Numbered from the stretch's first letter, positions 2,882-30,598 are shown. The stretch: 32,000 nt of DNA from Candidatus Harpocratesius repetitus (GCA_021498095.1 JAIZWK010000001.1:3540001-3572000); one strand, 5' to 3'. The notes: a model not told the origin generated them from the sequence alone. Made by a program: numbers and translations.

Positions 2882-3571
2882 TTATAATTCTTGAAGAATC
2901 CGCATTGTTTCTTCCCAATTATTAACTTGAGTAACTTTATGAGGAGGTCGCAACAATTCCTTGGCTAAATCATAATCATTACCGCCCTCCATTGTTTTAT
3001 CTCCAAAAAAATGAATAGGCCCATTGATTTTTGAAATAATTTGAGATTTATTTTTACCAACAGGATAAATATCTATACTTATTTGCCCACCGATAGATAC
3101 CTCAATTTCAGGAAATTGCTCCATTATAATTTGACGAAGATGGGCACGCTCATGATGTTCTTGATCGTATAAATTATAGGCTTTTCTCTGTTCTAATGTA
3201 CAAGCGCGTCCAACAATTGAAAAATTTATCATTCCAATCCTTTTTTCAATATGATTTCCTGCACGAATTGGATATGAACTCTCGTTTAGAAAAGATTGTA
3301 GAAGATCAATTAATTCTTGAGGTGCTTCCCAATCTTGTCGATACATAAGTTTTCCTTTAACATACATAACATTGCCTGCAGTGTTAAAACAACCATTTAC
3401 CGCATGCAAAATCTCATCACCCACCTGCTCTTTAGATTTTGGATAATCTGATCCTGAAATAAGATAGACGTTTCGATTCTTAATCCAATCTAAAAAGAAT
3501 TTTTTAAATAAAGGATCAATTGGCTGTCGTGCTGGAGTTAAAGTTCCATCAATATCAAAAACATAATTCAT
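2882..3571 (-). CDS. pmm: HAD-IIB phosphomannomutase of the eukaryotic PMM/Sec53 type
   Basis: FDIDGTLTPAR, EKRIGMINFSIVGR...EQR, SIGGQISIDIYP, FFGDKTMEGGNDY correspond to the conserved motifs of PMM2/Sec53; divergent from mannose-1-P guanylyltransferase. Confidence 0.9.
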   Translation of the reverse strand: MNYVFDIDGTLTPARQPIDPLFKKFFLDWIKNRNVYLISGSDYPKSKEQVGDEILHAVNGCFNTAGNVMYVKGKLMYRQDWEAPQELIDLLQSFLNESSYPIRAGNHIEKRIGMINFSIVGRACTLEQRKAYNLYDQEHHERAHLRQIIMEQFPEIEVSIGGQISIDIYPVGKNKSQIISKINGPIHFFGDKTMEGGNDYDLAKELLRPPHKVTQVNNWEETMRILQEL

Positions 3572-3687
3572 TGGATAATAAAAATTAAAACATTCTTTAA
3601 AAAAAAGCTTCCATTACGTTTTATTTACAAAAATGATTATAACTGAAAACTTTTTTCTTATGCGATTAATACTTATTGTATATAAAA

Positions 3688-4719
3688 ATGAAACATATTC
3701 CCGTGATATTGGCTGGTGGTAGGGGAGAACGATTTTGGCCACTTTCTCGAATTAATAAACCTAAACAAAATTTGTCATTAATGTCTGAAAATCCTATGAT
3801 TGTTGAAACTTATCGCCGATTACAATCATTTGATGAATTCTTCATAATTGCAAATGAATCCTTATGCGAATCTTTTCGACCTCTTTTACCCACTCATGTT
3901 GGATACATTATTGAACCCTTTGCAAGAAATACTGCACCCGCCATTGGTCTTGCTTGTGCCTATCTACAGCAGAAATTTGGAGATTGCATTGTTTTTTTTG
4001 AAACAGCTGATCATTACTACTCTGATGAAACAAAATATATTCATGAAATACAGAATGCATGTGAATTTGCTGAAAAAAATGATAAAATTGTTTTAATTGG
4101 AATTACTCCTGATTCTCCACACACTGGTTATGGATACATTGAACAAGGCGAAAAAATCTTTGATTCATTTTATAATGTTCAAAAATTTAAAGAAAAGCCA
4201 AATCTGAAAACAGCAATGGAATATCTGAAAGCAGAAACTTTTTCATGGAATTCAGGATTATTTATCGCAAAAACTTCAGTTTTACTCAAAGAAATCTCAC
4301 AATTTTTGCCAGAACTTGGAAATATTCTTTTGGAATTGCAGAAATGTAATTTTTCAGAACCTCTATTCACACAACTATTCCAAAAAGCCCCAAAAATCTC
4401 AATTGATTACGGAGTGTTAGAAAAATCATCTGAAATAATATTACTCAAATCTAACATGGATTGGGACGATATTGGAGATTTTAATGCAATAGCACGCCAC
4501 TTTAATGGGGATTCTCGAGGAAATATTATTCGTGGGAATGGAACTCTTAACAAGATAAATTCCACAAAAAATATTATAATTAGTGATAAATTAGTAGCAC
4601 TAATTGGAGTGAATGATTTAGTTATTGTTGAAACTGATGATGCGCTTTTAGTATGCCATCGCAGTGAAACTCAGAAAATCAGAGAAATTGTGCAAAATTT
4701 AGATGAAAAATACCGATAA
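3688..4719 (+). CDS. manC: Mannose-1-phosphate guanylyltransferase (monofunctional, no cupin isomerase domain)
   Basis: ILAGGRGERFWPLSR, PKQ, EPFARNTAPAIG, FKEKP, WNSGLF, SIDYGVLEK, WDDIG, LVIVETDDALLV. ATG 3688 preferred over TTG 3676. Confidence 0.93.
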   Translation: MKHIPVILAGGRGERFWPLSRINKPKQNLSLMSENPMIVETYRRLQSFDEFFIIANESLCESFRPLLPTHVGYIIEPFARNTAPAIGLACAYLQQKFGDCIVFFETADHYYSDETKYIHEIQNACEFAEKNDKIVLIGITPDSPHTGYGYIEQGEKIFDSFYNVQKFKEKPNLKTAMEYLKAETFSWNSGLFIAKTSVLLKEISQFLPELGNILLELQKCNFSEPLFTQLFQKAPKISIDYGVLEKSSEIILLKSNMDWDDIGDFNAIARHFNGDSRGNIIRGNGTLNKINSTKNIIISDKLVALIGVNDLVIVETDDALLVCHRSETQKIREIVQNLDEKYR

Positions 4720-4762
4720 AGTTATAAAAAATAAATAAACCATAAGAAATAAACAAAGTATG

Positions 4763-4783
4763 AAAAAAAATTTTTTACTTTTT
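4763..4783. terminator. Candidate bidirectional oligo-T terminator between convergent manC and cysN
   Basis: A8 immediately followed by T6 and T5 in the 74-bp gap between the two stop codons. Confidence 0.3.
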
Positions 4784-4793
4784 ACTCCTTTGA

Positions 4794-6599
4794 TTAAGGT
4801 TTGAAGATGATTCCCTTATTCTGGAGAATACGCTTCGCTTTATCTATTGCTCCATCCAAATCGCCATCATTATATATCTGATATGCAACTTGAATATTTG
4901 TAGCAATTTTGCCACCATACCAAATTGGAATTAGTCTTTCTGGCATAACTAAGGTACTACGAATGAGCTCTAAATCCTCTTGAGTTATCATTGTTGCTGT
5001 AACAATCAAAATTACTCCAGAATCTAATAAAATATTTGCTACCTCAGCCAAACGGCGCATATGCTCTTCATGATTATTTTTTTCTGAGAGTTTTATATCT
5101 GAACCCAATCCATAAAGTACACTACCAATTCCCAGATAGTAGGTATGTTTACCTTCTAGGAATAAGTGCTTTTCTAAAGTTTTAGCAAAAGCCTTCTTCC
5201 CAACTGCTTTCTCTCCTGTAATTAGAATTAAACAAGATCTTTGATTATAGTGCTCCGCACGATCATCCACATCAATCATCGAACGTTCCCATTTGTAATT
5301 CCGAAGCATTAATTTATCTCTATAGGCTTTCTTCTCATCTGATAAAGCTTCGGTAATAATTCCACCACCCCAAATTTCATAATCATCGACTATTACAAAT
5401 CTTGAAGTTAAAATATTTATATGGGGCAAATCGAAGACTATAGGGGATTTTAATTTTAATACAACTTCAGCGACTTCATTACGATTTACTTGTTCCTTTT
5501 GCTGGTAATCTAAACTGGAAGCATCAATGACTGTTTCGATTTTTTCTAATTCCATATCAATTTTTTGTGTGCCAATCTTGAGCATGTAGTTCTTTCCCAT
5601 CACAAATGGATTTCTTCCAAGCCAAAAGATATTAGCCTTAATTCGGGAAGTGACTTCAGGTTTAGCCTGATCCGCCCGTATCATCATTTCACCGCGTTTT
5701 AAATAAAGATGATCGGTTATTGTTACTCCTACCGCATATCCCGCACTAACCGTGTTACGGGGGGGAGTATTGAAGCCTTCGATGGTTTTTATAGTACTCT
5801 TTTTGTTTGAAGGGTAAAATAGGACTTCATCACCAACAGATATTCTTCCACTGATAATGGTTCCGGCTACAATCCGTCGATTATCGCCATCGCGTGTAAA
5901 TTTATAAACATCTTGAACAGGCATGCGAAAATCTTGATCTTCTGGATCTTTCTGGTTAAGGAATAAATCAAGTTGATCTAACACAGTGTATCCTTGATAC
6001 CAAGGCATTTTATTTGAAATTGTCGCAACATTATCTCCTTCTTTTCCGGATATGGGAATATAAGCGGTGGGTTTCATTTCCAATTTGGCGAGAAATTCCG
6101 CATAATCCGTCTTAATCTGTTCAAAACGACTTTGTGAGTAATCTTCTAAATCCATTTTGTTTATAAGCACTGCAATTTGCTTAATGCCCAACATTGAAAG
6201 CATATAACAATAACGTTTGGAATTTTCTTGAATCCCTTCGTGGGCATCAATAACCAATAGAGCCGCTTCTGCTCGTGATGCACCTGTGACTACATTTTTT
6301 AAGAATTCTATATGCCCTGGAGTATCAATAATAATGTATTTTCGTTTTGGAGTTTTAAAGAACACGCGAGCTGCATCGATGGTAATTCCTTGTGCTTGTT
6401 CATCCTTCAAAGCGTCAAGCAAAAAAGAATATTCAAAGGGTTTAGAATTTCTACGGCATGTTTCTTTGACACGTTCAAGTTTTCCTTCGGGTAAAGAGTT
6501 TGTATCTGCAAGCAACCGCCCGATTATAGTACTCTTTCCATGGTCAACATGTCCTACAATTGCAACGTTCATATCTTCGTCTCGTTCTTGATTTGACAT
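4794..6599 (-). CDS. cysN: Sulfate adenylyltransferase GTPase subunit fused to a degenerate APS-kinase-like domain (CysN/CysC, NodQ-like)
   Basis: [42 protein letters not shown]; C-terminal [10 protein letters not shown]...[12 protein letters not shown]...[14 protein letters not shown] is APS-kinase-like; immediately downstream of cysD; SD-like GAGG 7 nt before the ATG. Confidence 0.92.
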
Positions 6600-6692: not shown

Positions 6693-7574
6693 CTACATAT
6701 AACCATCACGGCGTAGTGCTTCCAACCCGCCTCCATCCTCTTTATCTTGATCGCGACCGTCACGTTCAGCAATTGTTGAAAACTTTCCAGTTCTGAGTTC
6801 TTCAACAATATCATGTACCGTCTTAGCATTTGATTTAACCGGTTTAGTACAAGGCCAGCATCCCAATGAACGATAACGTGTACCATCTCCCTGATCAAGA
6901 TACAAAGAGACAATTGGGATATTCTCACGCTCGATGTACTCCCAAATATCAAGTTCAGTCCAATCTAATAGAGGATGAATCCGAACATGAGTTCCGGGAG
7001 CGAAATCCGTCTTGTATTGATTCCAAAATTCAGGGGGCTGTTCTTCAATATTCCAATCATTATTTCTATCTCGTGGAGAAAAGTATCGCTCTTTAGAACG
7101 ACTACCTTCTTCATCAGCCCGCACTCCAACGATAATTCCTGTGAACGGTTCTGTATTTTGATCCACTTCATATTTACCAGTAGCATGATTCAAGCGAAAG
7201 CGCGGCCAACGACCGTTCAATGTATTTTCTAAAGCCAAGGTTTTTAGATTTCTACAACATTCAAGACGAGTTGCATTTCCATCAGGAAAAGTTTGTTTTA
7301 AGCGCAAAGCTTCTTTGTTTTGGCCGTAAATCATATCTAAATTCCATTCCATTGCCAAACGATCGCGGTGTTCGATCATTTCTGGGATTTTATAAGCAGT
7401 ATCTATATGAATTAGAGGAAATGGCACGTGACCGAAAAAGGCTTTCCGTGTAAGCCACAAGAGCACGGTAGAGTCTTTTCCGATGGACCAGAGCATGCCG
7501 AGATTTTTAAATTGAGCGTAAGCTTCTCGAAGGATATGCACGCTTTTATTTTCGAGCTTATCAAGATGTTCCAT
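6693..7574 (-). CDS. cysD: Sulfate adenylyltransferase catalytic subunit
   Basis: [91 protein letters not shown]. Confidence 0.93.
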
Positions 7575-7610: not shown

Positions 7611-7878
7611 ATTGAAGCAATGAAGAATTCTTTTAAAAGTTTGGAATTCAAATGTTTTAATACATGGAGAATCTTGAACAATCATACCTTAAGATTATAA
7701 AACTTCAACTTAATTTTCTTGTTTCCAATTTTCACAAAGAAATTAAAATAATAATTGATAATTAAAATCAATATTGTAATTAAATAATTAAAACCAAGTA
7801 AATAAATACAAATTTATTAAAAGTACTAACATTTATTCTATAATATCGTTAACTCCTACCCAAAATGTGATTAAAAAA

Positions 7879-8904
7879 ATGAACCTACTCATCACTGGCG
7901 GACTTGGATTCATCGGTAGTAATTTCATCCGCCTTCTTCTGGAAAAATACCCAAAATTTGAAATTTGGAATCTTGATGCAATGACATATGCTGGAAATCC
8001 TGAAAATTTGCATGATTATGTCAATCACTCACGTTATCATTTTGTTAAAGGTTCTATCTGCAACTATGAACTTGTAGATTACCTGTTGTCAGAATACAAT
8101 ATTGAAGCCATCATAAATTTTGCAGCTGAATCTCATGTCGATCGCTCGATTTCCAATCCTGATGTTTTTGTAGATACTAACGTGAAAGGAACCCTCACTT
8201 TACTTAACGCTTTTAAAAAATACCGCCACCAAGTACAGAAATATGTGCAAATCTCCACCGATGAGGTCTACGGCCATCTTGGATTCAATGATCCTGCTTT
8301 TACCGAAAAAACACCAATTCATCCCCGCAGCCCTTATTCTTCCAGCAAAGCTTCTGCTGATATGCTTGTACAAGCCTTTTTCCACACGTATCAACTACCT
8401 GTAGTGATAACTCGCTGTTCTAATAATTATGGACCTTACCAGTTCCCAGAAAAACTCATTCCGTTGATGATACGTAATATTCAAGCAGATAAACCGCTAC
8501 CAGTATACGGAGATGGCTCGAATGTGCGTGATTGGATTCATGTTACGGATCATTGTCGTGGAATCTTATCTGCATTAGAAAAAGGTACACCGGGAGAAGT
8601 ATATAATTTCGGTGGCGATGCGGAAGTTTCCAATCTAAATATGGTTAAATATCTACTTAAGGCTCTTGGAAAAGGGGAAGATCTGATCACTTTTGTACGA
8701 GATAGGCCCGGACATGATCTTCGTTATGCGATGAATTTCGAAAAAGCAACCAAAGAGTTGGGATGGCGCCCACAATATGATTTTGATACAGGAATGCAGG
8801 AAACGATAAAATGGTATCTCGAACATGATGAATGGGTAGAGCATTGTATCACTGGAGAATATTTAGAATATTACTCCAAACAGTATGGAACTAAGTTAAC
8901 CTAA
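7879..8904 (+). CDS. rmlB: dTDP-glucose 4,6-dehydratase
   Basis: TGGLGFIGSNF, DAMTYAGN, NFAAESHVDRSI, STDEVYG, YSSSK, RCSNNYGPYQFPEKLIP, RDWIHV, DRPGHDLRYA. ATG 7879 preferred over GTG 7867. Confidence 0.95.
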   Translation: MNLLITGGLGFIGSNFIRLLLEKYPKFEIWNLDAMTYAGNPENLHDYVNHSRYHFVKGSICNYELVDYLLSEYNIEAIINFAAESHVDRSISNPDVFVDTNVKGTLTLLNAFKKYRHQVQKYVQISTDEVYGHLGFNDPAFTEKTPIHPRSPYSSSKASADMLVQAFFHTYQLPVVITRCSNNYGPYQFPEKLIPLMIRNIQADKPLPVYGDGSNVRDWIHVTDHCRGILSALEKGTPGEVYNFGGDAEVSNLNMVKYLLKALGKGEDLITFVRDRPGHDLRYAMNFEKATKELGWRPQYDFDTGMQETIKWYLEHDEWVEHCITGEYLEYYSKQYGTKLT

Positions 8905-8954: not shown

Positions 8955-9863
8955 GTGAAAGTATTAGTAATAGGTGCAAATGGCTTTCTTGGTCGTAAAG
9001 TAATTAAAGAGTTTCAAAAAACAGAGAATGTTATTGGAGCAGATGTTGAATTTACAGGTTTTTCATTGAAATGTCCAAAAATTCATCTGGATATTACTAA
9101 TGAAGTAGAAGTTTCTCAAATCATATTAGAACTGAAGCCTGATTTGACAATTTTGACAGCAGCTATGACAAATGTTGATGCTTGCGAAGATTTTCCAGAT
9201 AAAGCATATGCGATTAATGCTCTTGGTCCCAAATACGTGGCAAAAGCAGTTAAGCAAATAGGGGGAAAAATAATTCATATTTCGACAGATTTTATTTTTG
9301 ATGGAAAATTAGGGAATTACTCAGAAACAGATGTACCAAATCCTCTTTCAGTCTATGGAAAAAGCAAACTTCAAGGAGAACAATTTATTTTAGAAAGCGG
9401 AGTTCTTTCATGTATTTGCAGAACCAGTGTGCTTTATGGTTGGCCTGATATTGGTCAAAGAGACAATTTTTTCTCTTGGGCATTTAAATCATTAGTCTCA
9501 GGAAAAATCATTTCAATTATTGATGGTCAAATTACCACTCCAACATTTGTAAATGATTTAGCCAATTGCTTATATTGGATGCGGAATTTTGAAACTTCAA
9601 AGATATACCATACTGCAGGACCAGAAAAGTTGACCCGTTATGAATTTGTCCAACAAATATTGAATAAAATGCTGCAAAATCGTTCTCTTTTTCCTAATCT
9701 TGGAAAAATTGAGAAAATTACGAAATTAAAACAGAAAGCATTACGCCCCGATAATTCTTCCTTGAATACTGACAAAATTCAACAAGATTGGGGGAAAAAC
9801 TTTAAGAATTTATCAAATGCTTTAAATTTTTTGGATATTGAAAAGTTGAAAAATAAAATTTAA
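8955..9863 (+). CDS. rmlD: dTDP-4-dehydrorhamnose reductase-like SDR
   Basis: GANGFLG, AAMTNVDACE, HISTDFIFDG, PLSVYGKSKLQGE, RTSVLYG, TPTFVNDLA, RPDNSSL; between rmlB and rmlA. Confidence 0.88.
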   Translation: MKVLVIGANGFLGRKVIKEFQKTENVIGADVEFTGFSLKCPKIHLDITNEVEVSQIILELKPDLTILTAAMTNVDACEDFPDKAYAINALGPKYVAKAVKQIGGKIIHISTDFIFDGKLGNYSETDVPNPLSVYGKSKLQGEQFILESGVLSCICRTSVLYGWPDIGQRDNFFSWAFKSLVSGKIISIIDGQITTPTFVNDLANCLYWMRNFETSKIYHTAGPEKLTRYEFVQQILNKMLQNRSLFPNLGKIEKITKLKQKALRPDNSSLNTDKIQQDWGKNFKNLSNALNFLDIEKLKNKI

Positions 9864-9909: not shown

Positions 9910-10773
9910 ATGAAAGGAATTATATTAGCCGGTGGAAAGGGCACACGCCTTTATCCAATTACCCAAGTCGTAAGCAAACAACTTCTTCCAATTTATGATA
10001 AACCCATGATCTATTATCCTTTATCAGTGTTGATGCTTGCAAATATTCGAGAAATTTTAATAATTTCTGATCCCCGCAACTTACCCTTTTATCAAGAATT
10101 GCTTGGGGATGGTTCTCAAATTGGGCTTCAACTATCTTATAAGGTGCAAACTGAACCTCGAGGTTTGGCAGATGCATTTATTGTGGGCGAAGAATTTATA
10201 GCAGGGGATAAAGTAGCACTAATTTTGGGAGATAATGTATTTTATGGGCGAGGATTCAGCCACATTCTTGCTAAAGCCCGTAATCTGGAAAAAGGTGCAA
10301 CAATATTTGGATATTATGTTAACAATCCAGAAGAATTCGGTGTAGTAGAATTTGATGAAAATTTCAATGTTGTTTCACTCGAGGAAAAACCCAAGCAACC
10401 GAAATCGAATTATGCAATCCCAGGTCTTTATTTCTATGATGAACATGTTGTAGAATTTGCCAAATCGTTGAAACCGTCAGCAAGAGGTGAAATTGAAATC
10501 ACTGATCTTAATATAATCTACTTAAAGCGTAAGGAATTAAAGGTGCAATTATTGGGGCGTGGATTTGCTTGGCTTGATACAGGATCATATGAAGGATTAG
10601 CTAATGCTACAGATTTTGTTCGAACGATTCAAAAGCGAACAGGATTGTATATTTCATGTATTGAAGAAATTGCTTTCTTAAGAAAATTTATGAATAAAGA
10701 TATGTTAAAAGAAAGAGCTGAAAAATATAAAAAAACAGAATATGGAAAATATTTACTAAAATTGATAAAATAA
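9910..10773 (+). CDS. rmlA: Glucose-1-phosphate thymidylyltransferase
   Basis: [56 protein letters not shown]; SD-like AAGGAG at 9894-9899. Confidence 0.96.
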
Positions 10774-13681: not shown

Positions 13682-14713
13682 TTGATTTATGTTAATATGT
13701 CTTCAAAAACTACCGATTCTTTGATAAGCGTTATCATTACAACCTTCAATCGAGCATCAGTAGTTGGAAAGGCAATTAAAAGTGTTCTACTCCAGACTTA
13801 TCAAAATATTGAACTTTTAATTATTGATGATGGATCAGATGATAATACTAATGAAGTAATAAAAGAATGGATGAAAAAAAGCAATAAAATCCAGTTTTTT
13901 CGATTATCTACAAATTTAGGTGCAAATGCTGCGCGGAATAAAGGTATTCAACTTGCCAATGGAAAATATATTGCATTTTTAGATTCAGATGATGAATGGC
14001 TTCCGAGAAAACTTGAAAAGCAAATTGAACTTTTTAAAAAAAAAAAATCACAAAAATTAGGTATGGTTTATTGTGGATTAATGAAAAAATATCCAAATGG
14101 AATTATTTCTTTTAAAATTGAGAAGAAATCAGGAAATGTTTTTCAAAAATTACTGGTGTCGAATTTCATTGGAGGTGCAAGCATTCCCTTGATAAAGAAG
14201 AATGTTTTTGAAGTATGTGGAGGGTTCGATGAATCGAGAATTTTTCAGAGAGGAGGTTCACAAGATTATGATATGTGGCTCAGAATTGCATCAAAATTTT
14301 CAATTGGTGTGGTTCCAGAAATATTAGTATATTATAATATAAGTAAAAATTCTATAAGTTTAAATTCAGAATTATCTAATCCTTTTAATAGAGTAAGAGC
14401 ACGATTGGTAATTCTAAAAAAATTTCGTTCATATTTTGATCAGCATCATGAAGCATGTACTTCACTTCTCATTGCAATTTCTCCTGGCATGATTAGAATA
14501 GGAAAAAGAAAATTAGCAAAATATTATCTAAAATCAGCATTAAATTTTACTCCTTTCAGTGGTGCATTATATTTTCATCTCTTTTTGATAAGTTTCATTA
14601 AATATGATAAATTGCTTCTATTATTATGGAATTTTCCTTTAAAAGCAAAGAATCTTTTGCTAAATCTTCCAAATTATTTTATTTACCTAATGAATTTAAA
14701 TTCAGATAAATGA
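13682..14713 (+). CDS. GT2-family (GT-A) glycosyltransferase
   Basis: ISVIITTFNR, IIDDGSDD, GANAARNKG, FLDSDDEW, QDYDMWLRI. True start may be ATG 13697. Contains an A12 run at 14036-14047. Confidence 0.9.
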   Translation: MIYVNMSSKTTDSLISVIITTFNRASVVGKAIKSVLLQTYQNIELLIIDDGSDDNTNEVIKEWMKKSNKIQFFRLSTNLGANAARNKGIQLANGKYIAFLDSDDEWLPRKLEKQIELFKKKKSQKLGMVYCGLMKKYPNGIISFKIEKKSGNVFQKLLVSNFIGGASIPLIKKNVFEVCGGFDESRIFQRGGSQDYDMWLRIASKFSIGVVPEILVYYNISKNSISLNSELSNPFNRVRARLVILKKFRSYFDQHHEACTSLLIAISPGMIRIGKRKLAKYYLKSALNFTPFSGALYFHLFLISFIKYDKLLLLLWNFPLKAKNLLLNLPNYFIYLMNLNSDK

Positions 14714-21688: not shown

Positions 21689-24208
21689 TTAATTATTAAG
21701 CCAATAAAGAACTCGTTGATCCATTCCTCCAACAGCAACTCGATTAATATAAATAGCATCAAAGGGGACTAATAATTGGTTCTCTGATATAATTCCAAAA
21801 TACTTTAAATCAGTTAAATATACGCCTTCTGTAGAATAACTCGCATCATAATAAATAAAAACATTCTTTATTCCTTTGACTTCTCTCAATTCACTTAATA
21901 ATTCAGTCGCATTGACACTAAATTTAAGTATTCCATTTTGACTTTCCCATAAATATTCAAATTCATCCACAGAGTATATATTTCTTTCGTATCCTGTATA
22001 ATAATTGTAAGGATGCTTCCATTTAAACCCACCAATTATATAACTTGATGAATTTTGAGTAGTGCTATTGGTTCTTTCATTTTGATTTAATATAAAAAAC
22101 GTTGAATTTGAAATAAAGTCATTTTCTGAAGTCGTAATATATGCTTTAAGCTGAATTTGATAAATCATTCCAATTATTGTCGAAAAAAGTAGGAAAATAA
22201 CTAAAACTCTCTGAAAAACAAGTTTCTTGAATTTTTTATCGACATTATAAGATAAGTATAAACCAAATCCAATAAAAAAGTAAAAGCTGAACAATTGAAT
22301 AACTCGATTAATGAAGGTAGAAGATGTTCCAATGAAAATCAATAAAATAATTAGACAAGATATGCAAATTATATGCAAATAATGTAGTTTTCCTAAAAAA
22401 TCATAATTCCGAAATAAAATAAATGCAACATAACTACTACTAATAATTACACCTGCAATGAAAATTACAAGGATAATTAAGCGAGTATTTGTCGGAAATC
22501 TGTAAGAATTATGCATATTCAAGAAAATTAGCAGTATACAAACAATTATAATCGCTATTGGGAGAAATAATTGAAGGAAATATCTACGCTCAAATTTCAC
22601 TGCAGCACCTGATTTTGGAAAATTAAAAATTACTTTATCTTTAGATTTTAGATTGAAACTATCTTTATTTATAAAACGCTCGAAATATATTAATGCAACT
22701 CCTATTAAGGGAATAGAAATGATGAAAATAAGTGCTTTTAGAGAATTTTCAAATAAATCTGATTTTAGGAAAAGTGATAGAGAATAAGGATTGAAAAATA
22801 ATTGAGTAACAAGACCACATAAATAAAGTAATAAAAGTTTGATAAAGGATCTGTTTCGAATCACGACAAATATTAATGCTCCAATTAAAGGAAGTAAATA
22901 AAAAAGAGTATTTACTACGTGGGTTGAAATGGATGCAACAATAAGAATAATTTGAATGATAAAAAATTTAGTATTTTTTGCTTGAGTTTTAATTTTTATT
23001 TTTTTATCTTTTAAATATCCTTTTATTAAGTGCTTTTCAATTGATTGTTCATCTTTTTCTTGTATCCTTTCTAAATTATCTATTTTAGATTCATTTTTTT
23101 CAAATGATACTACTTCTTCTAATTTTTCTTCATTTGAACATGTAGGCGTAAAATTATTGTTATTAGAATGAAAACTATTTGACTGAATTCTTTTCATTTC
23201 AACAAAGAAATTAAGATACAATTGAAAACCGAATAAAGTTGAAAGAGCTGTGGGCCAAAATTGTGAGAAATTAATTAAAGTTCCTAATGCAGTTAATGAA
23301 AATATAAATGTGGATAGAATCGCAATAGTCCTTCCTTTTTTTTCAGGTAAGACAATTCTCATGAAATTAAAGAAAATCAAACAAGCTAATGGTATTTGAA
23401 ATAATCCAATCCAACGTCCAATTGTAAATGTATCTTGTCCAGAAGCAAGTGTTAGTAATGCTCCGATGAAATGATATGATAAGTTTCCTCGATAACTTGC
23501 TTTAAGAAATTGAAATTGATTTGTCAAAAAAGCTTGACTAAGTTTAATATGATACCAATCATCTTCAACAGGAAAAAATGGATAATGAAGACCTGCAAAT
23601 AAACTTAAAAGAAAAATAAATGTTGTAAGAAAAATAATGTCTTTTTTATTTGATCTATATATTGATCTGAAAAATGATGTGAAAAATGATGTGAAAAATG
23701 ATTTAATTTTTGATTTAACTATCAAAACACGATTTGAAAAAGAGTTTTGAAAGATTTGATGTTCAGGATTTTTAATTTTCTGGGAAGATCCTATTCTGGT
23801 TGATATAGATGAGTATTCATTCATATTCTTTTTAACATTACTAACTATAATATTTCCAATTAAAGGTATATAAAAAATCTCATAGATAAGCACCAAAGAC
23901 CACTTACTAAATGGAAAATTAAAAATAAGGAATAATTCAGCCCATATCGCCCAATAACATAAATTTAATAATAGACCATTCGAAATATTAGTTAAATTTC
24001 GCCAGTCATTATTGAATAATCCATAGGAAAGAAGCAATCCAGGCAAAACAACCCAAATAATAGCAGCAAAAAAAAAGGATAGAATTTTTAATAATTCTCC
24101 TTGAAATGTTGGAATTATAAAAATTGTGAAAGGGAATAATAAAACAATTGTGATTATAAATATCAAAGTAGAATATGGGTAGGATTTTCTGCTTCTCGTT
24201 TTATTCAC
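21689..24208 (-). CDS. 839-aa polytopic membrane protein, GT-C-like
   Basis: LPGLLL helix, first-loop motif PVEDDWYH, THVVN helix, terminal NRVIQ helix and a small C-terminal soluble domain with sequons; GTG start. Confidence 0.6.
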   Translation of the reverse strand: MNKTRSRKSYPYSTLIFIITIVLLFPFTIFIIPTFQGELLKILSFFFAAIIWVVLPGLLLSYGLFNNDWRNLTNISNGLLLNLCYWAIWAELFLIFNFPFSKWSLVLIYEIFYIPLIGNIIVSNVKKNMNEYSSISTRIGSSQKIKNPEHQIFQNSFSNRVLIVKSKIKSFFTSFFTSFFRSIYRSNKKDIIFLTTFIFLLSLFAGLHYPFFPVEDDWYHIKLSQAFLTNQFQFLKASYRGNLSYHFIGALLTLASGQDTFTIGRWIGLFQIPLACLIFFNFMRIVLPEKKGRTIAILSTFIFSLTALGTLINFSQFWPTALSTLFGFQLYLNFFVEMKRIQSNSFHSNNNNFTPTCSNEEKLEEVVSFEKNESKIDNLERIQEKDEQSIEKHLIKGYLKDKKIKIKTQAKNTKFFIIQIILIVASISTHVVNTLFYLLPLIGALIFVVIRNRSFIKLLLLYLCGLVTQLFFNPYSLSLFLKSDLFENSLKALIFIISIPLIGVALIYFERFINKDSFNLKSKDKVIFNFPKSGAAVKFERRYFLQLFLPIAIIIVCILLIFLNMHNSYRFPTNTRLIILVIFIAGVIISSSYVAFILFRNYDFLGKLHYLHIICISCLIILLIFIGTSSTFINRVIQLFSFYFFIGFGLYLSYNVDKKFKKLVFQRVLVIFLLFSTIIGMIYQIQLKAYITTSENDFISNSTFFILNQNERTNSTTQNSSSYIIGGFKWKHPYNYYTGYERNIYSVDEFEYLWESQNGILKFSVNATELLSELREVKGIKNVFIYYDASYSTEGVYLTDLKYFGIISENQLLVPFDAIYINRVAVGGMDQRVLYWLNN
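23668..23702. repeat. In-frame 12-bp tandem repeat (TGAAAAATGATG x~2.9) encoding SFFT-SFFT-SFF
   Basis: Read directly from the sequence. Confidence 0.9.
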
Positions 24209-24451
24209 TCCAGCACTATAGACAATGAAAAATTATTAAAATAAAACACTTCCTTCGTAATAAAGTATAATATATTAGAGCATAGTATTAAATAGAAGAT
24301 TATCCATTTTTGGCTTAATCAACAACGCGATATACTCGTAGATGTGATGTGATATGATGTATATTTTAAAAAAATACAAGACAATTGCATAATGCATTTT
24401 TAATACCTTTCTTTTTCTAATCTTAAACCCTTTTCTCCTAATCTAAAGAAA

Positions 24452-24459
24452 AATAGAAA
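24452..24459. repeat. Left target-site duplication AATAGAAA
   Basis: Identical 8-mer immediately outside both TIRs. Confidence 0.85.
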
Positions 24460-24484
24460 CAGTCTTCAAGGTTATAATCTAAAC
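24460..24484 (+). repeat. Left terminal inverted repeat CAGTCTTCAAGGTTATAATCTAAAC
   Basis: 22/25 match to the reverse complement of 25902-25926. Confidence 0.92.
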
Positions 24485-24554
24485 GACTCAATGCGACAAT
24501 AAGCGAAGACCGAAACAGTTTTGAAGGGAAAGAAGAATTTATAATTGATACATT

Positions 24555-25865
24555 ATGAGTTCTTTTACAAGAACGACGATTCCCCAATCGTCCCTCCCAA
24601 TTTTCCCTATAAATTTATTTCTCCGCGGAGAATTTAAATCTTATGTTAACAAGTTGGTTGGTCGATCGGAAATCGCTCAGAAATTTCGTCCAAGACTGTA
24701 TTCCTATTATGATTTCATCTTGGTCAAACTATTCGCCTTAGCCAGCAAGAAGTCCATTGATTATGCTTCAGATTATCTAAATAAACTACTTTCTAAGCAC
24801 TATCGAAAGAAATTCAATCTGAAATTGAAGACCTTTCGCGATGGAATTCGTAAAAGACGGTTAGTCCCCCATCAGACGGATGTTGACAAGTTTTTTAGGC
24901 GATTATCCGAGAATGATGTTCATTTTATCTTCGGAAACCTCCTAAACCATGTGAATCAAAAGATTCGAAGTCATTCGATTGGGGGGTCAAAAATGCGGTT
25001 GCTGGTCGACAACACAGAATATTCGTACTATGGAAAACTTAGACCGCCTTTTGAAGTTGGAACTCATAAACAACCAGGAACTCGTAAAGCTCGTCTGTTT
25101 CAAGGCATGGCAATTCAAGGATGTGGTATGACTTTGTTTTCAGAATTCCGACTCCTTCGTTATAAGCAATACCGTGCAAAGCATATTGGACTTTCCGCAA
25201 AGTGGCACAAATTTCAAGGATTCAACCTCAGTTATGCACTAATGGACCGCGAATTCTACCGCGCTTCGCTTATCAAAGAATTAAAAGATCAGAAACTCCC
25301 CGTTTTAATTCCTGCTAAAAAATTCCAGAAAGTTAAAAAGCATTTCGAGGAATTTTTGCATGGTAAAAGAGGATTATGTGAAAAGTATCTGTTCGCACAG
25401 ACTCCAAAGACCAAACCTTGGCCGAACTCCGTTCATGTGCATCTAGTATTAACCGCACATCGAAGTAAATCAGCCTTGCAGGTTCGTGAGCAATTCCGTA
25501 GAAAGAAACTTACATTTGATAAAGCAGTGGAAGAAATTGAAGGTTTTTTTACCACTCTTGATCCTCGAAAGAATTTAGCTCGATGGAGCCGCTGGCTCTC
25601 CAGAACTTATAAAAAAAGATGGTTCGAAGAAACTGGATTTCGCATGCTTAATTCTATCCATGAATCGTTCCGAAATCATCATCCATTCCCGCAATTAGCT
25701 CAGATTTATTTGAGATCTTATATTTTTAACTGTTGGCAATTTTACCGCAAGCAACAAATTAAATGTCACACCAAATTATGGAAAACGAGTTTAAATGTTT
25801 ATCAGTCAAGCTTAACTGATGTGATCGAGAGGGAAATGCTTGAAAGTACAAAAGAAAATGTGTAG
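24555..25865 (+). CDS. tnp: DDE transposase (ISH3-like/IS4 superfamily)
   Basis: LLVDNTEYSYYGK (D1), LMDREFY (D2), YKKRWFEETGFR (Y-x2-R-x3-E signature). Confidence 0.88.
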   Translation: MSSFTRTTIPQSSLPIFPINLFLRGEFKSYVNKLVGRSEIAQKFRPRLYSYYDFILVKLFALASKKSIDYASDYLNKLLSKHYRKKFNLKLKTFRDGIRKRRLVPHQTDVDKFFRRLSENDVHFIFGNLLNHVNQKIRSHSIGGSKMRLLVDNTEYSYYGKLRPPFEVGTHKQPGTRKARLFQGMAIQGCGMTLFSEFRLLRYKQYRAKHIGLSAKWHKFQGFNLSYALMDREFYRASLIKELKDQKLPVLIPAKKFQKVKKHFEEFLHGKRGLCEKYLFAQTPKTKPWPNSVHVHLVLTAHRSKSALQVREQFRRKKLTFDKAVEEIEGFFTTLDPRKNLARWSRWLSRTYKKRWFEETGFRMLNSIHESFRNHHPFPQLAQIYLRSYIFNCWQFYRKQQIKCHTKLWKTSLNVYQSSLTDVIEREMLESTKENV

Positions 25866-25901
25866 TTTTTACAAAAGGAAAAAAGGAGGCTGTTCTTTCA
25901 A

Positions 25902-25926
25902 GTTTAGAACATAACCTTAAAGACTG
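25902..25926 (-). repeat. Right terminal inverted repeat
   Basis: GTTTAGAACATAACCTTAAAGACTG; reverse complement CAGTCTTTAAGGTTATGTTCTAAAC. Confidence 0.92.
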
Positions 25927-25934
25927 AATAGAAA
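25927..25934. repeat. Right target-site duplication AATAGAAA
   Basis: Matches 24452-24459. Confidence 0.85.
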
Positions 25935-25986
25935 AAACATATTTTTAAATTTCTATCATAAAAATCTGAATGTTTAGTATTCTTTA

Positions 25987-26775
25987 TTAAATTACATTAA
26001 ATTTTCGTAAGTAATAATAGAAAAATCCCTTGATAATATCAAAGAATAGCAAAAATTTGCGCACATTTGATTTTCCAAAGCAACGTCCATGTAAATGAAT
26101 GGGGACTTCTTCAATCTTAAAATTGTAAATCGCTCCCAGCATTAGCAATTCCGTAGTAAATGCCATATCAAAAAATTGAATTTGTTCAAAAATCTTTTTG
26201 GTTTTCCGATGAAAAGCGCGAAAACCTCCTTGATTATTCTTAATTGATTGATGGAAGAATAACTTCAGGAAAATTTGAATGAAACTTTCACCTGCACGAT
26301 TTAAAAATGGAATGGGATAATAATATTCACCTTTATATCGGGAACCTATTATAATATCAGCATCGTTCTTTATAATGGATCGACAAAGGGCTGGAATATC
26401 TTCAGGATCATGTTGACCATCACCATCAATAGTTATAAAGATATCTCCTCTTGCGATTTTTAAACCATCTAAGATTGTCCGCCCATATCCTTGATTATTT
26501 TTATGATAGATAAAACGAATATCCCTTCTTTCCAATAATTTTTCGACAGTTCCATCTGTAGAACCATCATCCACAATAATTATTTCATAATTTGCTAATT
26601 TTAAACTATGAATTTTCTCAATAATTGGAATAATTGTGTTTGATTCATTATAACAAGGAATAATTATTGAAATAAAAGTAGATGGATAAAGTCCACTGGA
26701 TTTAAATGTAGAAATTGAAGTATTTTTGATAGCATTGTTTATAATCTCAGTGTTAACTATTGTATTACTAATCAT
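25987..26775 (-). CDS. GT2 glycosyltransferase, DPM1/polyprenol-phosphate sugar synthase-like
   Basis: ISIIIPCYNE, VDDGSTDGT, NQGYG, IDGDGQHDPEDI, IIIGSRY, QGGFRAF, KIEEVPI, RCFGKS. Confidence 0.85.
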   Translation of the reverse strand: MISNTIVNTEIINNAIKNTSISTFKSSGLYPSTFISIIIPCYNESNTIIPIIEKIHSLKLANYEIIIVDDGSTDGTVEKLLERRDIRFIYHKNNQGYGRTILDGLKIARGDIFITIDGDGQHDPEDIPALCRSIIKNDADIIIGSRYKGEYYYPIPFLNRAGESFIQIFLKLFFHQSIKNNQGGFRAFHRKTKKIFEQIQFFDMAFTTELLMLGAIYNFKIEEVPIHLHGRCFGKSNVRKFLLFFDIIKGFFYYYLRKFNVI

Positions 26776-26981: not shown

Positions 26982-29498
26982 TTAAAAAGAAATAGGTCCA
27001 ATTATAAGTGTTCCAGAATTCTCAAAATAAACAGTACAATTTTGTTCTAAAAACATCCTTAAATCTTGCTTTAATGAAATGTAATATGGGTTATCGCTAA
27101 ATTTTAAAATAAAAACATAGATTATATCACTTTTAAAGACATTTTGACAATAATACTGAAATTCATCTAAAGTTTTATTTCGATTTGATATTTGGTTATG
27201 TATAATTATTTCTGGAGAACCTGTATAAAGCAGATAGTCAGCACCTCTAAGAGTTAAGCAAAAAACGCCAGTGTTTGTTGGGTTTTGACTAATTATATTA
27301 TCCATTTGCTCAATTCCTTCCCATTCATCATCTTTAAGAGCATATACAGATTGAGTAAAACGATATCTTGTATCTACAACTATTGGAATAAATAGAAATG
27401 TAGAATTAATTAAAAAGAAAATAATGAGTGTTTTACTAATTGAACGAATTTTTTGATTGGATATCAAATCAGTTTTTGACTTTAAATATTGTATTGTTAT
27501 TGGTGCTAGAAAAGCACTCGGAATTACAATAAATTGCACAAATCGGGACTCAAAATATGTGGTTTTATATAGATTGAAATTAATCCATGTAATAATTTTT
27601 CCAAAGATATAAGCCAGAAATATCATTAAGACGAAAAATCGAAAATATTCGGGAAAATTTTTATTTTCATTGGTTGATTTATTATTGGAATCTTTCTTTA
27701 AATTTTTCAAAGAGGTATTTGCAATTATTAAAATTGCGCTCAATGCAAGAAAAAGTTTTGTTCCTAATAGAGCTATATCATACCAATTCACTTGCCCAAA
27801 ATTATAACTATAATTAGCATTCATTTGTTCATAATAGTCAATATTGAAAAATTTGTAAAGTCGAAATCCCCAAGCAATTAATAAATAGATTATAACACTA
27901 AGTGAGATACTAATTATTATTTTATTTTGGATTTCGGACTTGATTGTCAGGCTTATGTGATGATCAATCATATTCAATATTACATTACAGAGAAATGACA
28001 AGGATAATGCAAAAAACGATAAGCAAATTGCCAACAATATTGGAAAAAGGTGAGAACTAAATGAGAATAATGGGAATCTAGATGAAAGGAAGAGAAAAAT
28101 GAAAAACAATGCAGAAAAAACACTAGAAATCATAAATGAAATTTGCAATATCCACGATCGTTCAGCTTTATAATTAAAGATCCCATAAACAGCGATTATA
28201 CCAGAAAAAATAACAGCTTCTGCAATGTGTGTCAAAAACATTAAAGTACCCATGAAAGTAATAAGGAATATTTGATTATATTTTGAAAGATTTTTCTGTT
28301 GAGTTTGATTATGAATATGTTGATAATTATGCGAAAGTAATTCGGAATTGTAATTTTGATTGCGATTTTGGTTAAAAATTATTGCCAAAATTAAAAAAAT
28401 TGCTGTTATATTGGTAAAATTTGGAATATTCCACAAACCAATAAGTGAAAATGAAAAACTATTTTCTGTATTCATATTAAGAACTCGAATGATCGCTAAA
28501 TAAGAAATCTCGTGTAATTTTCCAGTAACTAAATAATAATTAATGAAATTAATTAATGAGCCCCAAACTGCATTTAAGATTGTAAAGAAAAATACGGTTA
28601 AAATTTGTAAATATGGTTTTTTCGGGAAAACACGCATACTTGCGGCTAAAACTGAAATGGGAAGAAAAAGAATTAAACTTAGATATGCTAACATATTTCC
28701 TTTTATTGTTCCATTGCTAATGCTAATAAAATAAGATTGAAAAGAATTTTCAAGAATGTAATAAAATTTATTTAAATTCTGGGGGCATTTTGCAATAACT
28801 TGAGCCCACTTGTAATGACGAGATATATCTGTTTCAATATATAGATGTTCTGGATATAAAATTATCCAACAAACTATGTAAAAGAAAATAACAAGCCCCA
28901 TACCCAATAGGACACCTAAATTAAAATGTACTCTGTAATTATCCTTAACTTTTTTGTTCCGAAAAGTATTGATAACACTTAATAAAACAGTGCCAATCAA
29001 TAAAATTACCTCTTTTTGCGAAATATCCCACATGGATAAAATGAGCCATGAAATTCCATAGAAAATAATCCCTATAAAGTAGGAAAGAAGCATTCGTTCT
29101 AATAGTGAAAGTCTTTTTTTGCAAAATCCGCTAATATCAATGAAAAAAGTGCCTGGAACTGTAACTAATATAATAAGCGAGATAAAAGCAAAAAGTGAAT
29201 TCTCTGTTGGATGAATTATATAAAAAAATAAAGAAAGAATGCTAAATCCAGTTATTATAAAATGAAAGATAGAGTGTTCAATAGATAATTCAGGTTTTTT
29301 ATTAAATGATATCTCTTTAAATAATGAAGAAGAGTATCGATCAAAAAAATACTTGATAAAGAAAGCCATCAATAAGATCTCTATAATCATGAAATAAAAC
29401 CAGATATGAATTCCTCTAAATGCTAATAATCCAATAGGTACAGAAAATAATATGGGAATAATAAAATACTTGAGTATCCAAACATGTTTTCGATTCAT
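26982..29498 (-). CDS. 838-aa polytopic membrane protein, GT-C-like, paralog of the N-terminal half of the 1486-aa protein
   Basis: Shared blocks: VPGTF/LPGFV, ETDISRHY/YIDIQRHY, THIAEAVIF/IHVVEATIF, GKIITWIN..FESRF/GRLITFIN..WETRF, EGIEQMDNIISQNP/EGIDNLSDLLDQNP. Confidence 0.6.
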   Translation of the reverse strand: MNRKHVWILKYFIIPILFSVPIGLLAFRGIHIWFYFMIIEILLMAFFIKYFFDRYSSSLFKEISFNKKPELSIEHSIFHFIITGFSILSLFFYIIHPTENSLFAFISLIILVTVPGTFFIDISGFCKKRLSLLERMLLSYFIGIIFYGISWLILSMWDISQKEVILLIGTVLLSVINTFRNKKVKDNYRVHFNLGVLLGMGLVIFFYIVCWIILYPEHLYIETDISRHYKWAQVIAKCPQNLNKFYYILENSFQSYFISISNGTIKGNMLAYLSLILFLPISVLAASMRVFPKKPYLQILTVFFFTILNAVWGSLINFINYYLVTGKLHEISYLAIIRVLNMNTENSFSFSLIGLWNIPNFTNITAIFLILAIIFNQNRNQNYNSELLSHNYQHIHNQTQQKNLSKYNQIFLITFMGTLMFLTHIAEAVIFSGIIAVYGIFNYKAERSWILQISFMISSVFSALFFIFLFLSSRFPLFSFSSHLFPILLAICLSFFALSLSFLCNVILNMIDHHISLTIKSEIQNKIIISISLSVIIYLLIAWGFRLYKFFNIDYYEQMNANYSYNFGQVNWYDIALLGTKLFLALSAILIIANTSLKNLKKDSNNKSTNENKNFPEYFRFFVLMIFLAYIFGKIITWINFNLYKTTYFESRFVQFIVIPSAFLAPITIQYLKSKTDLISNQKIRSISKTLIIFFLINSTFLFIPIVVDTRYRFTQSVYALKDDEWEGIEQMDNIISQNPTNTGVFCLTLRGADYLLYTGSPEIIIHNQISNRNKTLDEFQYYCQNVFKSDIIYVFILKFSDNPYYISLKQDLRMFLEQNCTVYFENSGTLIIGPISF

Positions 29499-29688
29499 AA
29501 GAAGTTCAAATAATTAGTTTTTAGGATTAATAATAAAGAATGAATAGAATTCAAGAATTATAAAATTCAGAATCTAATATTCTTTATATTTATTATATGT
29601 TTAAAATTTTTAAATCTCATGTGTTTTTAACTTTTTTTAATCTTTATCAATTTCAACTCATCAGAAAAAATTAAATGGGAAAAAACAT

Positions 29689-29744
29689 AACATTTGGAAC
29701 GAACCATAAACATTTTGAATTGAAACATTTAATACGAAACATTT
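29689..29744 (+). promoter_or_regulatory. Four direct copies of AACATTT upstream of a TTTAAATA box in a divergent promoter region
   Basis: Copies at 29689, 29709, 29724 and 29738; TATA-like TTTAAATA at 29758-29765, 24 nt before ATG 29789. Confidence 0.3.
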
Positions 29745-29788
29745 TTCAGTGATAAATTTTAAATATAATTTAAACAAAGGGATATGAA

Positions 29789-30598
29789 ATGACACTCAAT
29801 CAAATGCACCTCGCTGTGCCAGATATTAAAGAATTATCCTCTGCAACTGTGATCACACCTCAAAGATCCTACCCGTTACATGTTATTGTTCCCGTGTTCA
29901 ATGAAGAACATGCAATCAAGGATGTAATCCATCGTATAAAACGAGTTTTGCGAACATATCCCTATGAAACAAAAATAACTGTCATTGATGATGGAAGCAC
30001 AGATAAAACCATTGAAAAGATTGGTTCTGAGCCAGAAATTAATCTTGTTACAAATCGGATTAATCAGGGCAAAGCCCGGAGTTTGAATAAATGCTTCCGT
30101 ATGATTGGAGAGAATGAGATTGTGGTTTTAATTGATGGAGATGGTGAACATCCACCTGAAGAGATTATGAAATTAGTAACCCCGATTTTAAAGGGAAAAG
30201 CAGATATTGTTATTGGAACTCGTTTTTCACCCAAGTTTCCTTTATCCCTTGAAAAAGCACCTAAAGGATCATATCTCAATAACCATAAACGATTCAGTAA
30301 AATCCGCAAATTTGGGAATATAATTATATCAATACTTATTTTTTTATTATACAAACAATACATTTCTGATTCGCAAAGTGGATATCGTGCATTTAAACCA
30401 GGCATATTGATGAAATATCAATCAAAATTCACAGGATTTGAGATAGAGACAGAAATGACTCTTGAATTAATGAAAAGAGGATATAGATTATATGAGGTGC
30501 CAATTACCACAGGATTAAGCACCCGCGAATCACATATGCATATTTTTCGAGATAGTTTAAAAATATTCAAAACAATTCTGGTTTTAAAATATTGTTAA
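29789..30598 (+). CDS. GT2 glycosyltransferase, DPM1/polyprenol-phosphate sugar synthase-like
   Basis: VIVPVFNEE, IDDGSTD, NQGK, IDGDGEHPPEEI, IVIGTRF, SDSQSGYRAF, GFEIETEM, YEVPI. Confidence 0.87.
   Translation: MTLNQMHLAVPDIKELSSATVITPQRSYPLHVIVPVFNEEHAIKDVIHRIKRVLRTYPYETKITVIDDGSTDKTIEKIGSEPEINLVTNRINQGKARSLNKCFRMIGENEIVVLIDGDGEHPPEEIMKLVTPILKGKADIVIGTRFSPKFPLSLEKAPKGSYLNNHKRFSKIRKFGNIIISILIFLLYKQYISDSQSGYRAFKPGILMKYQSKFTGFEIETEMTLELMKRGYRLYEVPITTGLSTRESHMHIFRDSLKIFKTILVLKYC

Follow-up and report, generated by a model that had tools for sequence, protein, structure and literature searches.

Positions 2882-30598 of a 32,000-nucleotide stretch of the Candidatus Harpocratesius repetitus genome (genome positions 3540001-3572000; the whole stretch is referred to here as the window) are one section of a larger surface-glycan island, which is hypervariable, ridden with insertion sequences (ISs), at least 90 kb long and equipped with three Wzx flippases. 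On balance, we lean towards a model in which the section supplies sugar donors, a glycan is assembled in the cytoplasm and flipped by Wzx, GT-C glycosyltransferases (GTs) decorate it outside the cell from lipid-linked sugars, and the product is sulfated. All the gene classes that an earlier reading of the sequence alone (the sequence-only reading) had listed for this section were recovered, each in its place. What is new is a pair of unnamed GT-C families with an N-terminal extension and a giant ectodomain, together with their physical linkage to the synthesis of 3'-phosphoadenosine 5'-phosphosulfate (PAPS) in an Asgard genome.

Three large membrane proteins are encoded on the minus strand of the window: a protein of 1486 residues (17162-21622), one of 839 residues (21689-24208) and one of 838 residues (26982-29498). 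None of the three matched Pfam at E-values up to 1, and a sequence search of the PDB with both family profiles returned noise only. A word-index homologue search retrieved only the 838-residue protein itself and, for the 839-residue protein, two relatives and one fragment. We then compared predicted structures with 48,161 PDB representatives using VIA-align. The model of the 838-residue protein, built from a 51-sequence alignment, had a predicted local distance difference test score (pLDDT) of 84.3 and a predicted template modeling score (pTM) of 0.90, and its top 12 matches were all GT-C structures with Z-scores of 15.3-9.3. In particular, it matched AglB (Z 15.3, 470 aligned residues), STT3B (14.2), ALG12 (13.8), AftA (13.1), DPY19 (12.7), ArnT (11.7), Pmt1/2 (10.6) and PglB (10.6); the top Foldseek matches (STT3, AglB and DPY19; best E-value 1.6e-4) were likewise all GT-C. 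Within this model, residues 1-188 formed a six-helix N-terminal extension, residues ~189-715 formed the GT-C core, and residues 719-837 formed a C-terminal α/β domain that resembled the C-terminal domain of AglB (3vu0, Z 7.9). The model of the 839-residue protein was of moderate quality (pLDDT 65, pTM 0.72); its top 20 matches were all GT-C (Z 17.6-8.9), with the next chain at Z 6, and included STT3B (17.6), AglB (17.3), ALG12 (15.3), ArnT (14.9) and PglB (14.7). The 1486-residue protein was found to be a paralogue of the 838-residue protein, with 23% identity over ~800 residues (E-value 1e-20) and a score of 720 bits against the family profile. The claim that the large membrane proteins adopt a GT-C fold was thus borne out in prediction for the 838- and 839-residue proteins and by homology for the 1486-residue protein.

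The sequence-only reading had assigned these proteins to one uncharacterised GT-C clade; we found two distantly related families instead. A BLASTP comparison of the 839- and 838-residue proteins was not significant, and the kinship of the 839-residue and 838/1486-residue families was visible at the profile level only (hhalign probability 97.8%, E-value 8.5e-13), with the residues D216/D224, H220/H228 and H430/H424 paired; all of these positions were invariant or close to it. Residues D224, E650 and R652 were invariant in 51 sequences of the 838/1486-residue family, and D216, W218, H220 and H430 were invariant in 16 sequences of the 839-residue family. An invariant acidic residue is thus present in the first loop of both families, aligned between them, and the positive-inside rule places D224 in an outside loop, ~10 residues past the transmembrane (TM) segment at 194-214. 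The consensus GTDPWYH of the 839-residue family (EDDWYH in the window protein) aligned with FDPWYQY of the lokiarchaeial AglB (hhalign probability 71.6%, E-value 3.5e-5), which put D216 opposite the Asp of FDPW; the same comparison for the 838/1486-residue family was not significant (probability 2.3%). In the 839-residue family alignment, the DNE motif of AglB faced a non-acidic stretch with the conserved residues Q316-x-W318-P319, at low local alignment confidence. The motif WWDxG was absent from all three window proteins and was present near residue 523 in 23 of the 23 lokiarchaeial AglBs that we extracted. Additionally, the Pfam STT3 model (PF02516) matched the AglB of this genome with 155 bits and none of the three large proteins. 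As judged from the predicted folds and these alignments, the large proteins belong among the enzymes with a GT-C fold but outside GT66, and the first loop of the 839-residue family resembles that of STT3.

The 1486-residue protein consists of a membrane domain of ~720 residues, a sequon-rich ectodomain of ~725 residues and a C-terminal TM anchor with a basic tail. Its ectodomain (window positions 17232-19500) contained 28 N-X-S/T sequons among 81 Asn residues, compared with 12.4 expected from the Ser and Thr content, while the membrane half contained 2 compared with 4.6 expected. The TM anchor, the basic tail and the sequon excess fit an extracellular, glycosylated domain. An Atlas search with residues 860-1445 of the ectodomain gave no usable match, and neither a family nor a fold was found. 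An exhaustive profile search among 1.84 billion proteins yielded 116 clusters (50% identity) of the 838/1486-residue family. Most members were 1200-1500 residues long, so the long form is the typical one. The family was patchy in Asgard archaea (14 of 400 genomes; 9 of 85 genera), and ten cluster look-ups for organism names also gave metagenome-assembled genomes (MAGs) of Thorarchaeota and Bathyarchaeota. All the loci of this family that we viewed were glycan clusters. In contrast to this rare family, the 839-residue family was widespread, with open reading frames (ORFs) of ~750-770 residues in 80 of the 161 genomes of the class.

Two small GT2 enzymes are candidates for the polyprenol-phosphate sugar synthases that would charge the lipid carrier for these proteins. 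The first is a DPM1/ArnC/PpgS-like protein of 262 residues (25987-26775, minus strand), which matched the Dol-P-Man (dolichol phosphate mannose) synthase of P. furiosus (PDB 5mlz, E-value 1.2e-24), ArnC (1e-13) and GtrB (1e-9). The second is an AglJ-like protein of 269 residues (29789-30598, plus strand), whose gene is divergent from the 838-residue GT-C gene and whose PDB matches were 5mlz (6e-15) and ArnC (9e-9). The top NCBIfam matches of the small GT2s were AglJ, PpgS and Dol-P-hexose transferase, with PgfS and ArnC also present. A third GT2 of the window, of 343 residues, served as a control and matched the elongating chondroitin and heparosan synthases in the PDB rather than the Dol-P-Man synthase, ArnC or GtrB. 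The small GT2s are thus nearer to polyprenol-phosphate sugar synthases than to elongating GT2s. Tandem-fused double versions of these proteins (542-559 residues) were observed near 839-residue-family GT-C genes in L. ossiferum-like and P. syntrophicum-like genomes (L035:16426-18099; G010:C1:5051219-5052814; L066:661-2289).

The gene neighborhood associates DPM1-like GT2s with the 839-residue family. The congeneric genome G002 has a contig (C64) that is collinear with window positions 4794-26775 and carries, in order, a partial DPM1-like GT2, a 910-residue GT-C, a 1589-residue GT-C, GT4, GT4, GT2, Wzx, GT4, RmlA, RmlD, RmlB, CysD and CysN, where the contig ends. A second Harpocratesius contig had the same core order. 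As evident from these comparisons, the gene set is co-conserved from CysN to the DPM1-like GT2 in a congeneric genome. The G002 orthologue of the 262-residue GT2 was 76% identical and stood directly upstream of the 839-residue-family gene, with a spacer of ~120 bp, and the ancestral arrangement therefore appears operon-like, with the DPM1-like GT2 followed by two GT-C genes. In the window, this spacer is occupied by an ISH3-like IS that the sequence-only reading had overlooked (~24445-25940, plus strand; transposase ORF 24555-25865, NCBIfam ISH3 transposase, 6.7e-10) and that is absent from the orthologous spacer of G002. Terminal inverted repeats of 25 nucleotides flank the IS (24460-24484 and 25902-25926), and the genome has four further copies of it with ~92% identity, at 2.16, 2.37, 2.58 and 2.68 Mb. 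The 838-residue gene was not found in two congeneric genomes and may be a separately acquired cassette.

Beyond the genus, an 839-residue-family GT-C gene lay within 1-4 kb of a short-chain dehydrogenase/reductase (SDR) epimerase/dehydratase gene (~323 residues) and one or two DPM1-like GT2 genes in 9 of 20 fetched loci from three genera, and the same module was present in G002 and in the L. ossiferum-like genome G010. A DPM1-like GT2 adjoined this GT-C family in at least five genera, where adjacency by chance would be ~2% per locus at 1-4 DPM1-like GT2s per 4-Mb genome. This triad resembles the bacterial Arn system and is the strongest argument for a polyprenol-phosphate monosaccharide donor in the 839-residue family. 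The donor assignment is accordingly best supported for this family and less settled for the 838/1486-residue family. We also observed that the Arn-like module, with a GT-C of ~760 residues, was widespread in one lokiarchaeial family (L072, L075-L077, L080, L082 and L085-L087), often with RmlD-like genes nearby.

The remaining genes of the section encode, as shown by homology, a supply of donors and a cytoplasmic assembly line. GDP-mannose is expected from a eukaryote-type (HAD-IIB) phosphomannomutase, PMM (2882-3571, minus strand; PF03332, 4.6e-38, 132 bits), and from the mannose-1-phosphate guanylyltransferase ManC (3676-4719, plus strand), which has an NTP_transferase domain and a ManC_GMP β-helix domain. 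PMM of the PF03332 type was confined to the host's own family within the order surveyed (7 of 13 genomes, compared with 0 of 27 from the other families) and was found among 14 control genomes in Lactococcus only. A dTDP-6-deoxyhexose is expected from an RmlB-like NDP-hexose 4,6-dehydratase (7867-8904; PF16363, 8.5e-87), an RmlD-like dTDP-4-dehydro-6-deoxyhexose reductase (8955-9863; PF04321, 3.6e-63) and the glucose-1-phosphate thymidylyltransferase RmlA (9910-10773; PF00483, 2e-72), all on the plus strand. The four genes of the dTDP-L-rhamnose pathway do not stand together, as the genome's single RmlC gene lies 34 kb downstream of the window (3605747-3606253), and the collinear G002 block likewise has no RmlC. 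Within the favored model, RmlC either works in trans or goes unused. Near a DDE transposase fragment, RmlD-like (198 residues) and RmlB-like (142 residues) fragments adjoin each other at L011:9619-10640 (genome ~3599619-3600640), apparently what is left of another rml cluster that has been broken up.

Four cytoplasmic GTs and one Wzx flippase are likewise encoded, by homology. On the plus strand, we found three GT4 (GT-B) genes, at 10907-12019 (PF00534; orthologue at the same position on the G002 contig), 14726-15949 (PF00534 and PF13439) and 15936-17141 (PF00534, 4.6e-40; overlapping the preceding GT4 gene by 14 nucleotides), and the elongating 343-residue GT2 (GT-A) gene at 13682-14713 (PF00535; top NCBIfam matches TuaG, EpsE and PglI). 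The gene at 12049-13605 (minus strand) encodes a 518-residue protein with ~12-15 TM segments that had no direct Pfam match. A profile of this protein and four orthologues matched two Wzx proteins encoded elsewhere in the island that do have Pfam hits (E-values 1e-107 and 2.5e-10; hhalign probabilities 100% and 96%), over the full length of ~450-500 columns, and its protein-language-model neighbors were all Wzx/Polysacc_synt clusters. Full-length homology to Polysacc_synt (PF01943/PF13440) proteins and the TM count of ~12-15 place it in the Wzx/MOP family of lipid-linked oligosaccharide flippases.

Adenosine 5'-phosphosulfate (APS) is expected, again by homology, from the two ATP sulfurylase subunits CysN (GTPase subunit; 4794-6599, minus strand; NCBIfam TIGR02034, 353 bits, over the cut-off; PDB 1zun_B, 7.8e-80) and CysD (small subunit; 6693-7574, minus strand; NCBIfam PRK05253, 350 bits, over the cut-off). 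The C-terminal APS-kinase-like domain of CysN is truncated or degenerate, with 106 of 152 profile positions matched. A complete APS kinase domain (215 bits) was found in a 489-residue CysQ-APS kinase fusion encoded at genome positions 3537958-3539427 (L092:1958-3427, plus strand), which ends ~0.6 kb before the first position of the window and is followed by a PIN-domain gene; this fusion is likely to be the functional APS kinase for the locus. Its CysQ half is an inositol-monophosphatase-family domain (3'-phosphoadenosine 5'-phosphate phosphatase), and the two halves form a PAPS-cycle enzyme pair that makes sense for sulfotransfer. Three PF00685 sulfotransferases are encoded downstream, 11 kb (genome 3583062-3583964; L010:13062-13964), 52 kb (3623317-3624195; L093:13317-14195) and 104 kb (~3675828) past the window end, and two of the three were seen inside glycan clusters with their own Wzx (L010:16828-18417 and L093:15428-16939). 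The possible sulfated product proposed in the sequence-only reading was rendered more likely by the upstream fusion and the downstream sulfotransferases, and the surface glycan is probably sulfated. A main role of CysD and CysN in assimilatory sulfate reduction was rejected because of the fusion and the nearby sulfotransferases; reductive genes were not searched.

The mechanism that we favor would proceed as follows. The GT4 and GT2 enzymes would assemble an oligosaccharide on a dolichol phosphate (Dol-P) carrier, with the first sugar coming from an enzyme encoded elsewhere or from one AglJ-like GT2. Wzx would flip the lipid-linked oligosaccharide outward, while the small GT2s would load Dol-P with single sugars. 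The GT-C enzymes would spend these lipid-linked sugars outside the cell, extending or decorating a glycan or glycoprotein, with the invariant first-loop Asp (D224 in the 838-residue protein; D216 of EDDWYH in the 839-residue protein) as the putative catalytic base. Finally, PAPS made through the CysQ-APS kinase fusion would feed the sulfotransferases of the neighboring clusters. The two-stage organization suggested in the sequence-only reading is thereby kept as the favored inference, but it is not unprecedented, as AglD, AglR and AglS of Haloferax volcanii form such a system (PMC3871713).

Several observations weigh against this model. The window contains no sulfotransferase, no RmlC and no initiating transferase. 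The best scores of the small GT2s against the AglJ model (TIGR04182) were 85 and 127 bits, the latter for the 269-residue protein, compared with a cut-off of 325, and both proteins were under the NCBIfam equivalog cut-offs, which allowed no assignment of a named enzyme or donor sugar. A hydrophobic-segment scan found no TM helix in either small GT2, and the TM and interface helices of the P. furiosus Dol-P-Man synthase and GtrB type are absent. Human DPM1 and PpgS likewise have no TM helices, and the missing helices therefore do not exclude the function of a polyprenol-phosphate sugar synthase. For the 838/1486-residue family, a DPM1-like GT2 was found within 10 kb in this window and in L. ossiferum, and most other loci had none; elsewhere the family was tightly coupled to GT4 genes (L036, L055-L059 and L063). 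The association counts overstate the evidence, as related genomes are not independent samples. In addition, the IS upstream of the 839- and 1486-residue genes may have cut both off from an upstream promoter by a polar effect. The model as a whole is built from homology and predicted folds, and the predicted structure of the 839-residue protein is of moderate confidence.

We consider it possible, if somewhat unlikely, that the GT-Cs, especially those of the 838/1486-residue family, are terminal transferases whose donor is the finished lipid-linked oligosaccharide after flipping. In that case, they would be either AglB-like oligosaccharyltransferases (OSTs) acting on an acceptor other than a sequon, or ligases or polymerases standing in for Wzy or WaaL, and the DPM1-like GT2s would start glycan assembly on Dol-P, as AglJ does. 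The best structural matches of the window proteins are indeed the OSTs AglB and STT3, including the AglB-like C-terminal domain of the 838-residue protein, and the 839-residue family has the STT3-type DPW(Y) motif. Many loci have the family directly after or overlapping runs of GT4 genes, with Wzx and with no DPM1-like GT2 (L036, L058, L059 and L063); the window holds neither a Wzy-like candidate nor an initiating transferase, and the best NCBIfam match of the 269-residue GT2 is AglJ, an initiating Dol-P hexosyltransferase. However, WWDxG and a Pfam STT3 match are lacking in all three proteins, Q-x-W-P stands opposite the AglB DNE motif in the 839-residue family, a canonical AglB is encoded elsewhere in the genome, and the module of epimerase, DPM1-like GT2 and GT-C mirrors single-sugar systems of the ArnA/ArnC/ArnT type. 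For the 838/1486-residue family, it is a serious alternative to outside decoration from single lipid-linked sugars that the flipped oligosaccharide is used in the manner of an OST, a ligase or a polymerase.

The section is also less closed than the sequence-only reading had proposed. It had been described as self-contained, and we found RmlC, the likely functional APS kinase, the initiating transferase, AglB and every sulfotransferase outside the window. The genome's only PF00953 initiating transferase lies ~680 kb away, and the canonical AglB (ORF of 1362 residues) lies ~3.2 Mb away. Neighboring clusters carry their own Wzx, GT2 and GT4 genes, an aminotransferase, a UDP-GlcNAc 2-epimerase, a UDP-glucose dehydrogenase, IS copies and broken rml fragments. 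One of them encodes a 492-residue protein with ~10-13 hydrophobic segments (L011:1253-2731; genome ~3591253-3592731), which had no Pfam match and showed no relation to the Wzx profile; a Wzy-like polymerase is one possibility for it. On the left flank of the section (510-2777), mobile-element or toxin-antitoxin-type genes border the glycan genes, namely a 162-residue ORF without a family, a DUF6290/UPF0175 antitoxin-like ORF and a 419-residue ORF with a weakly XerC/XerD-like N-terminus.

We judged it improbable that the window brings together independent modules, side by side in the hypervariable island, that serve several glycans rather than one pathway. The modules would be sulfate activation, GDP-mannose supply, a cluster of dTDP-sugar and Wzx genes, and a separately acquired cassette of GT-C and DPM1-like genes. 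Such a patchwork would agree with the three Wzx flippases, the many IS copies and the broken rml fragments of the island, with the missing 838-residue gene in two congeneric genomes, with the lack of PMM and ManC on contig C64 of G002, where CysN is the last gene, and with the uneven G+C content along the window (0.25-0.29 compared with 0.33-0.36). On the other hand, a congeneric genome has kept the genes from CysN to the DPM1-like GT2 collinear although its GT-C proteins have diverged by ~50%, which argues for a functional linkage of at least this block. It is very improbable that the large proteins are GT-C-shaped yet inactive scaffolds, receptors or transporters, for example surface anchors with a glycosylated ectodomain, as the huge sequon-rich ectodomain without a recognized fold and the missing canonical second acidic motif and WWDxG might suggest, since the invariant Asp, His, Glu and Arg residues occupy the expected GT-C active-site positions in 51 and 16 diverse sequences and glycan biosynthesis clusters consistently surround the genes of these proteins.

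Among known systems, the favored model is closest to the Agl pathways of H. volcanii, in which AglD, AglR and AglS are a Dol-P-Man synthase, a Wzx-like flippase and a Dol-P-Man mannosyltransferase (PMC3871713), and in which the low-salt Agl5-Agl15 pathway makes a sulfated, rhamnose-containing tetrasaccharide (PMC3871713, PMC4022621). Both are archaeal and clustered, with assembly on Dol-P in the cytoplasm and a Wzx-type flippase (PMC3871713, PMC3892788, PMC4022621). Both have dTDP-rhamnose genes and sulfation, which in our locus is probable, and in both a polytopic transferase adds, or in our model would add, the final sugar on the outside, taking it from a Dol-P-sugar that was charged separately. 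In contrast, the locus described here has three GT-Cs from two unnamed families, which carry a 6-TM N-terminal extension and, once, a 725-residue ectodomain, and its genes for sulfate activation share a cluster with those for the glycan.

STT3, AglB and PglB (CAZy GT66, GT-C_A) were the best structural matches (Z 15-18) and share with the window proteins the D-P-W-Y first-loop motif, in the 839-residue family, and a C-terminal α/β domain reminiscent of the C-terminal unit of AglB. The window GT-Cs differ from them in having no Pfam STT3 match and no WWDxG, and in a second acidic motif that is replaced, as far as a low-confidence alignment indicates. A polyprenol-phosphate sugar synthase GT2 adjoins a GT-C here as in the bacterial systems ArnA/ArnC/ArnT, GtrA/GtrB/GtrC, CsbB/GtcA/YfhO and PpgS/Rv3779; an SDR sugar-modifying enzyme is also adjacent in Lokiarchaeia, as in the Arn system, and the small GT2s lack TM helices, as does mycobacterial PpgS. 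However, no small flippase of the GtrA/ArnEF type was identified here, the carrier is presumably dolichol, and ArnT, GtrC and YfhO have no detectable sequence relation to the window GT-C families. The AlphaFold-DB clusters closest to the 838-residue model were DUF2079, DUF2206 and YYY/DUF2298 (E-values 2.5e-13 to 1e-6; TM-scores 0.45-0.59), yet none of their Pfam models matched at E-values up to 1. To our knowledge, none of these three families has a known function.

The sequence-only reading had suggested that the host might be an Asgard archaeon, and this was confirmed. The host genome is a single archaeal scaffold of 4.36 Mb with ~30% G+C and two archaeal 16S genes, and the nearest named relatives of a window protein were from Ca. 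Harpocratesius sp. and one Promethearchaeia MAG. A taxonomy look-up assigned Ca. Harpocratesius (Lokiarchaeia) to Promethearchaeaceae, an Asgard family to which Prometheoarchaeum also belongs. The published traits of Ca. H. repetitus FW102 include two 16S copies, as seen here, and an Argonaute of the PIWI type (PMC8813620; PMC11217426). In a search of sequencing runs, the stretch was present in its source sample only, and no RNA run was listed with it.

A bearing on the origin of eukaryotic glycosylation, which had also been suggested, proved weak: both families are accessory, patchy and closest to AglB and STT3 rather than to ALG, PMT or DPY19. The GT-Cs look like accessory, horizontally mobile AglB-like derivatives and not like ancestors of the ALG, PMT and DPY19 enzymes. 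There is a slim chance that both families are Asgard or archaeal offshoots of AglB that lost sequon recognition and became second-tier outside extenders fed by DPM1-like synthases, as a counterpart, and possibly a relative, of the STT3-like diversification into the eukaryotic lumenal Dol-P-sugar GT-Cs. If this were true, Promethearchaeaceae, with their eukaryote-type PMM, would offer living organisms in which to study how glycosylation in the endoplasmic reticulum is divided between two compartments.

Very little is known of Asgard glycobiology; a single glycoproteomic study, on P. syntrophicum, has been published, with the stated highlight that no clear ancestral eukaryotic traits were present (PMC11284389). 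The locus described here is a new archaeal version of a known pathway type and gives no direct view of how eukaryotic glycosylation arose. As predicted from these folds, Lokiarchaeia have at least two families of GT-C-fold proteins that Pfam does not detect, one widespread and one rare and patchy. These proteins provide concrete, testable candidates both for the extension of glycans outside the cytoplasm and for sulfated glycans at the surface, and such candidates are also present in the cultured L. ossiferum and P. syntrophicum.

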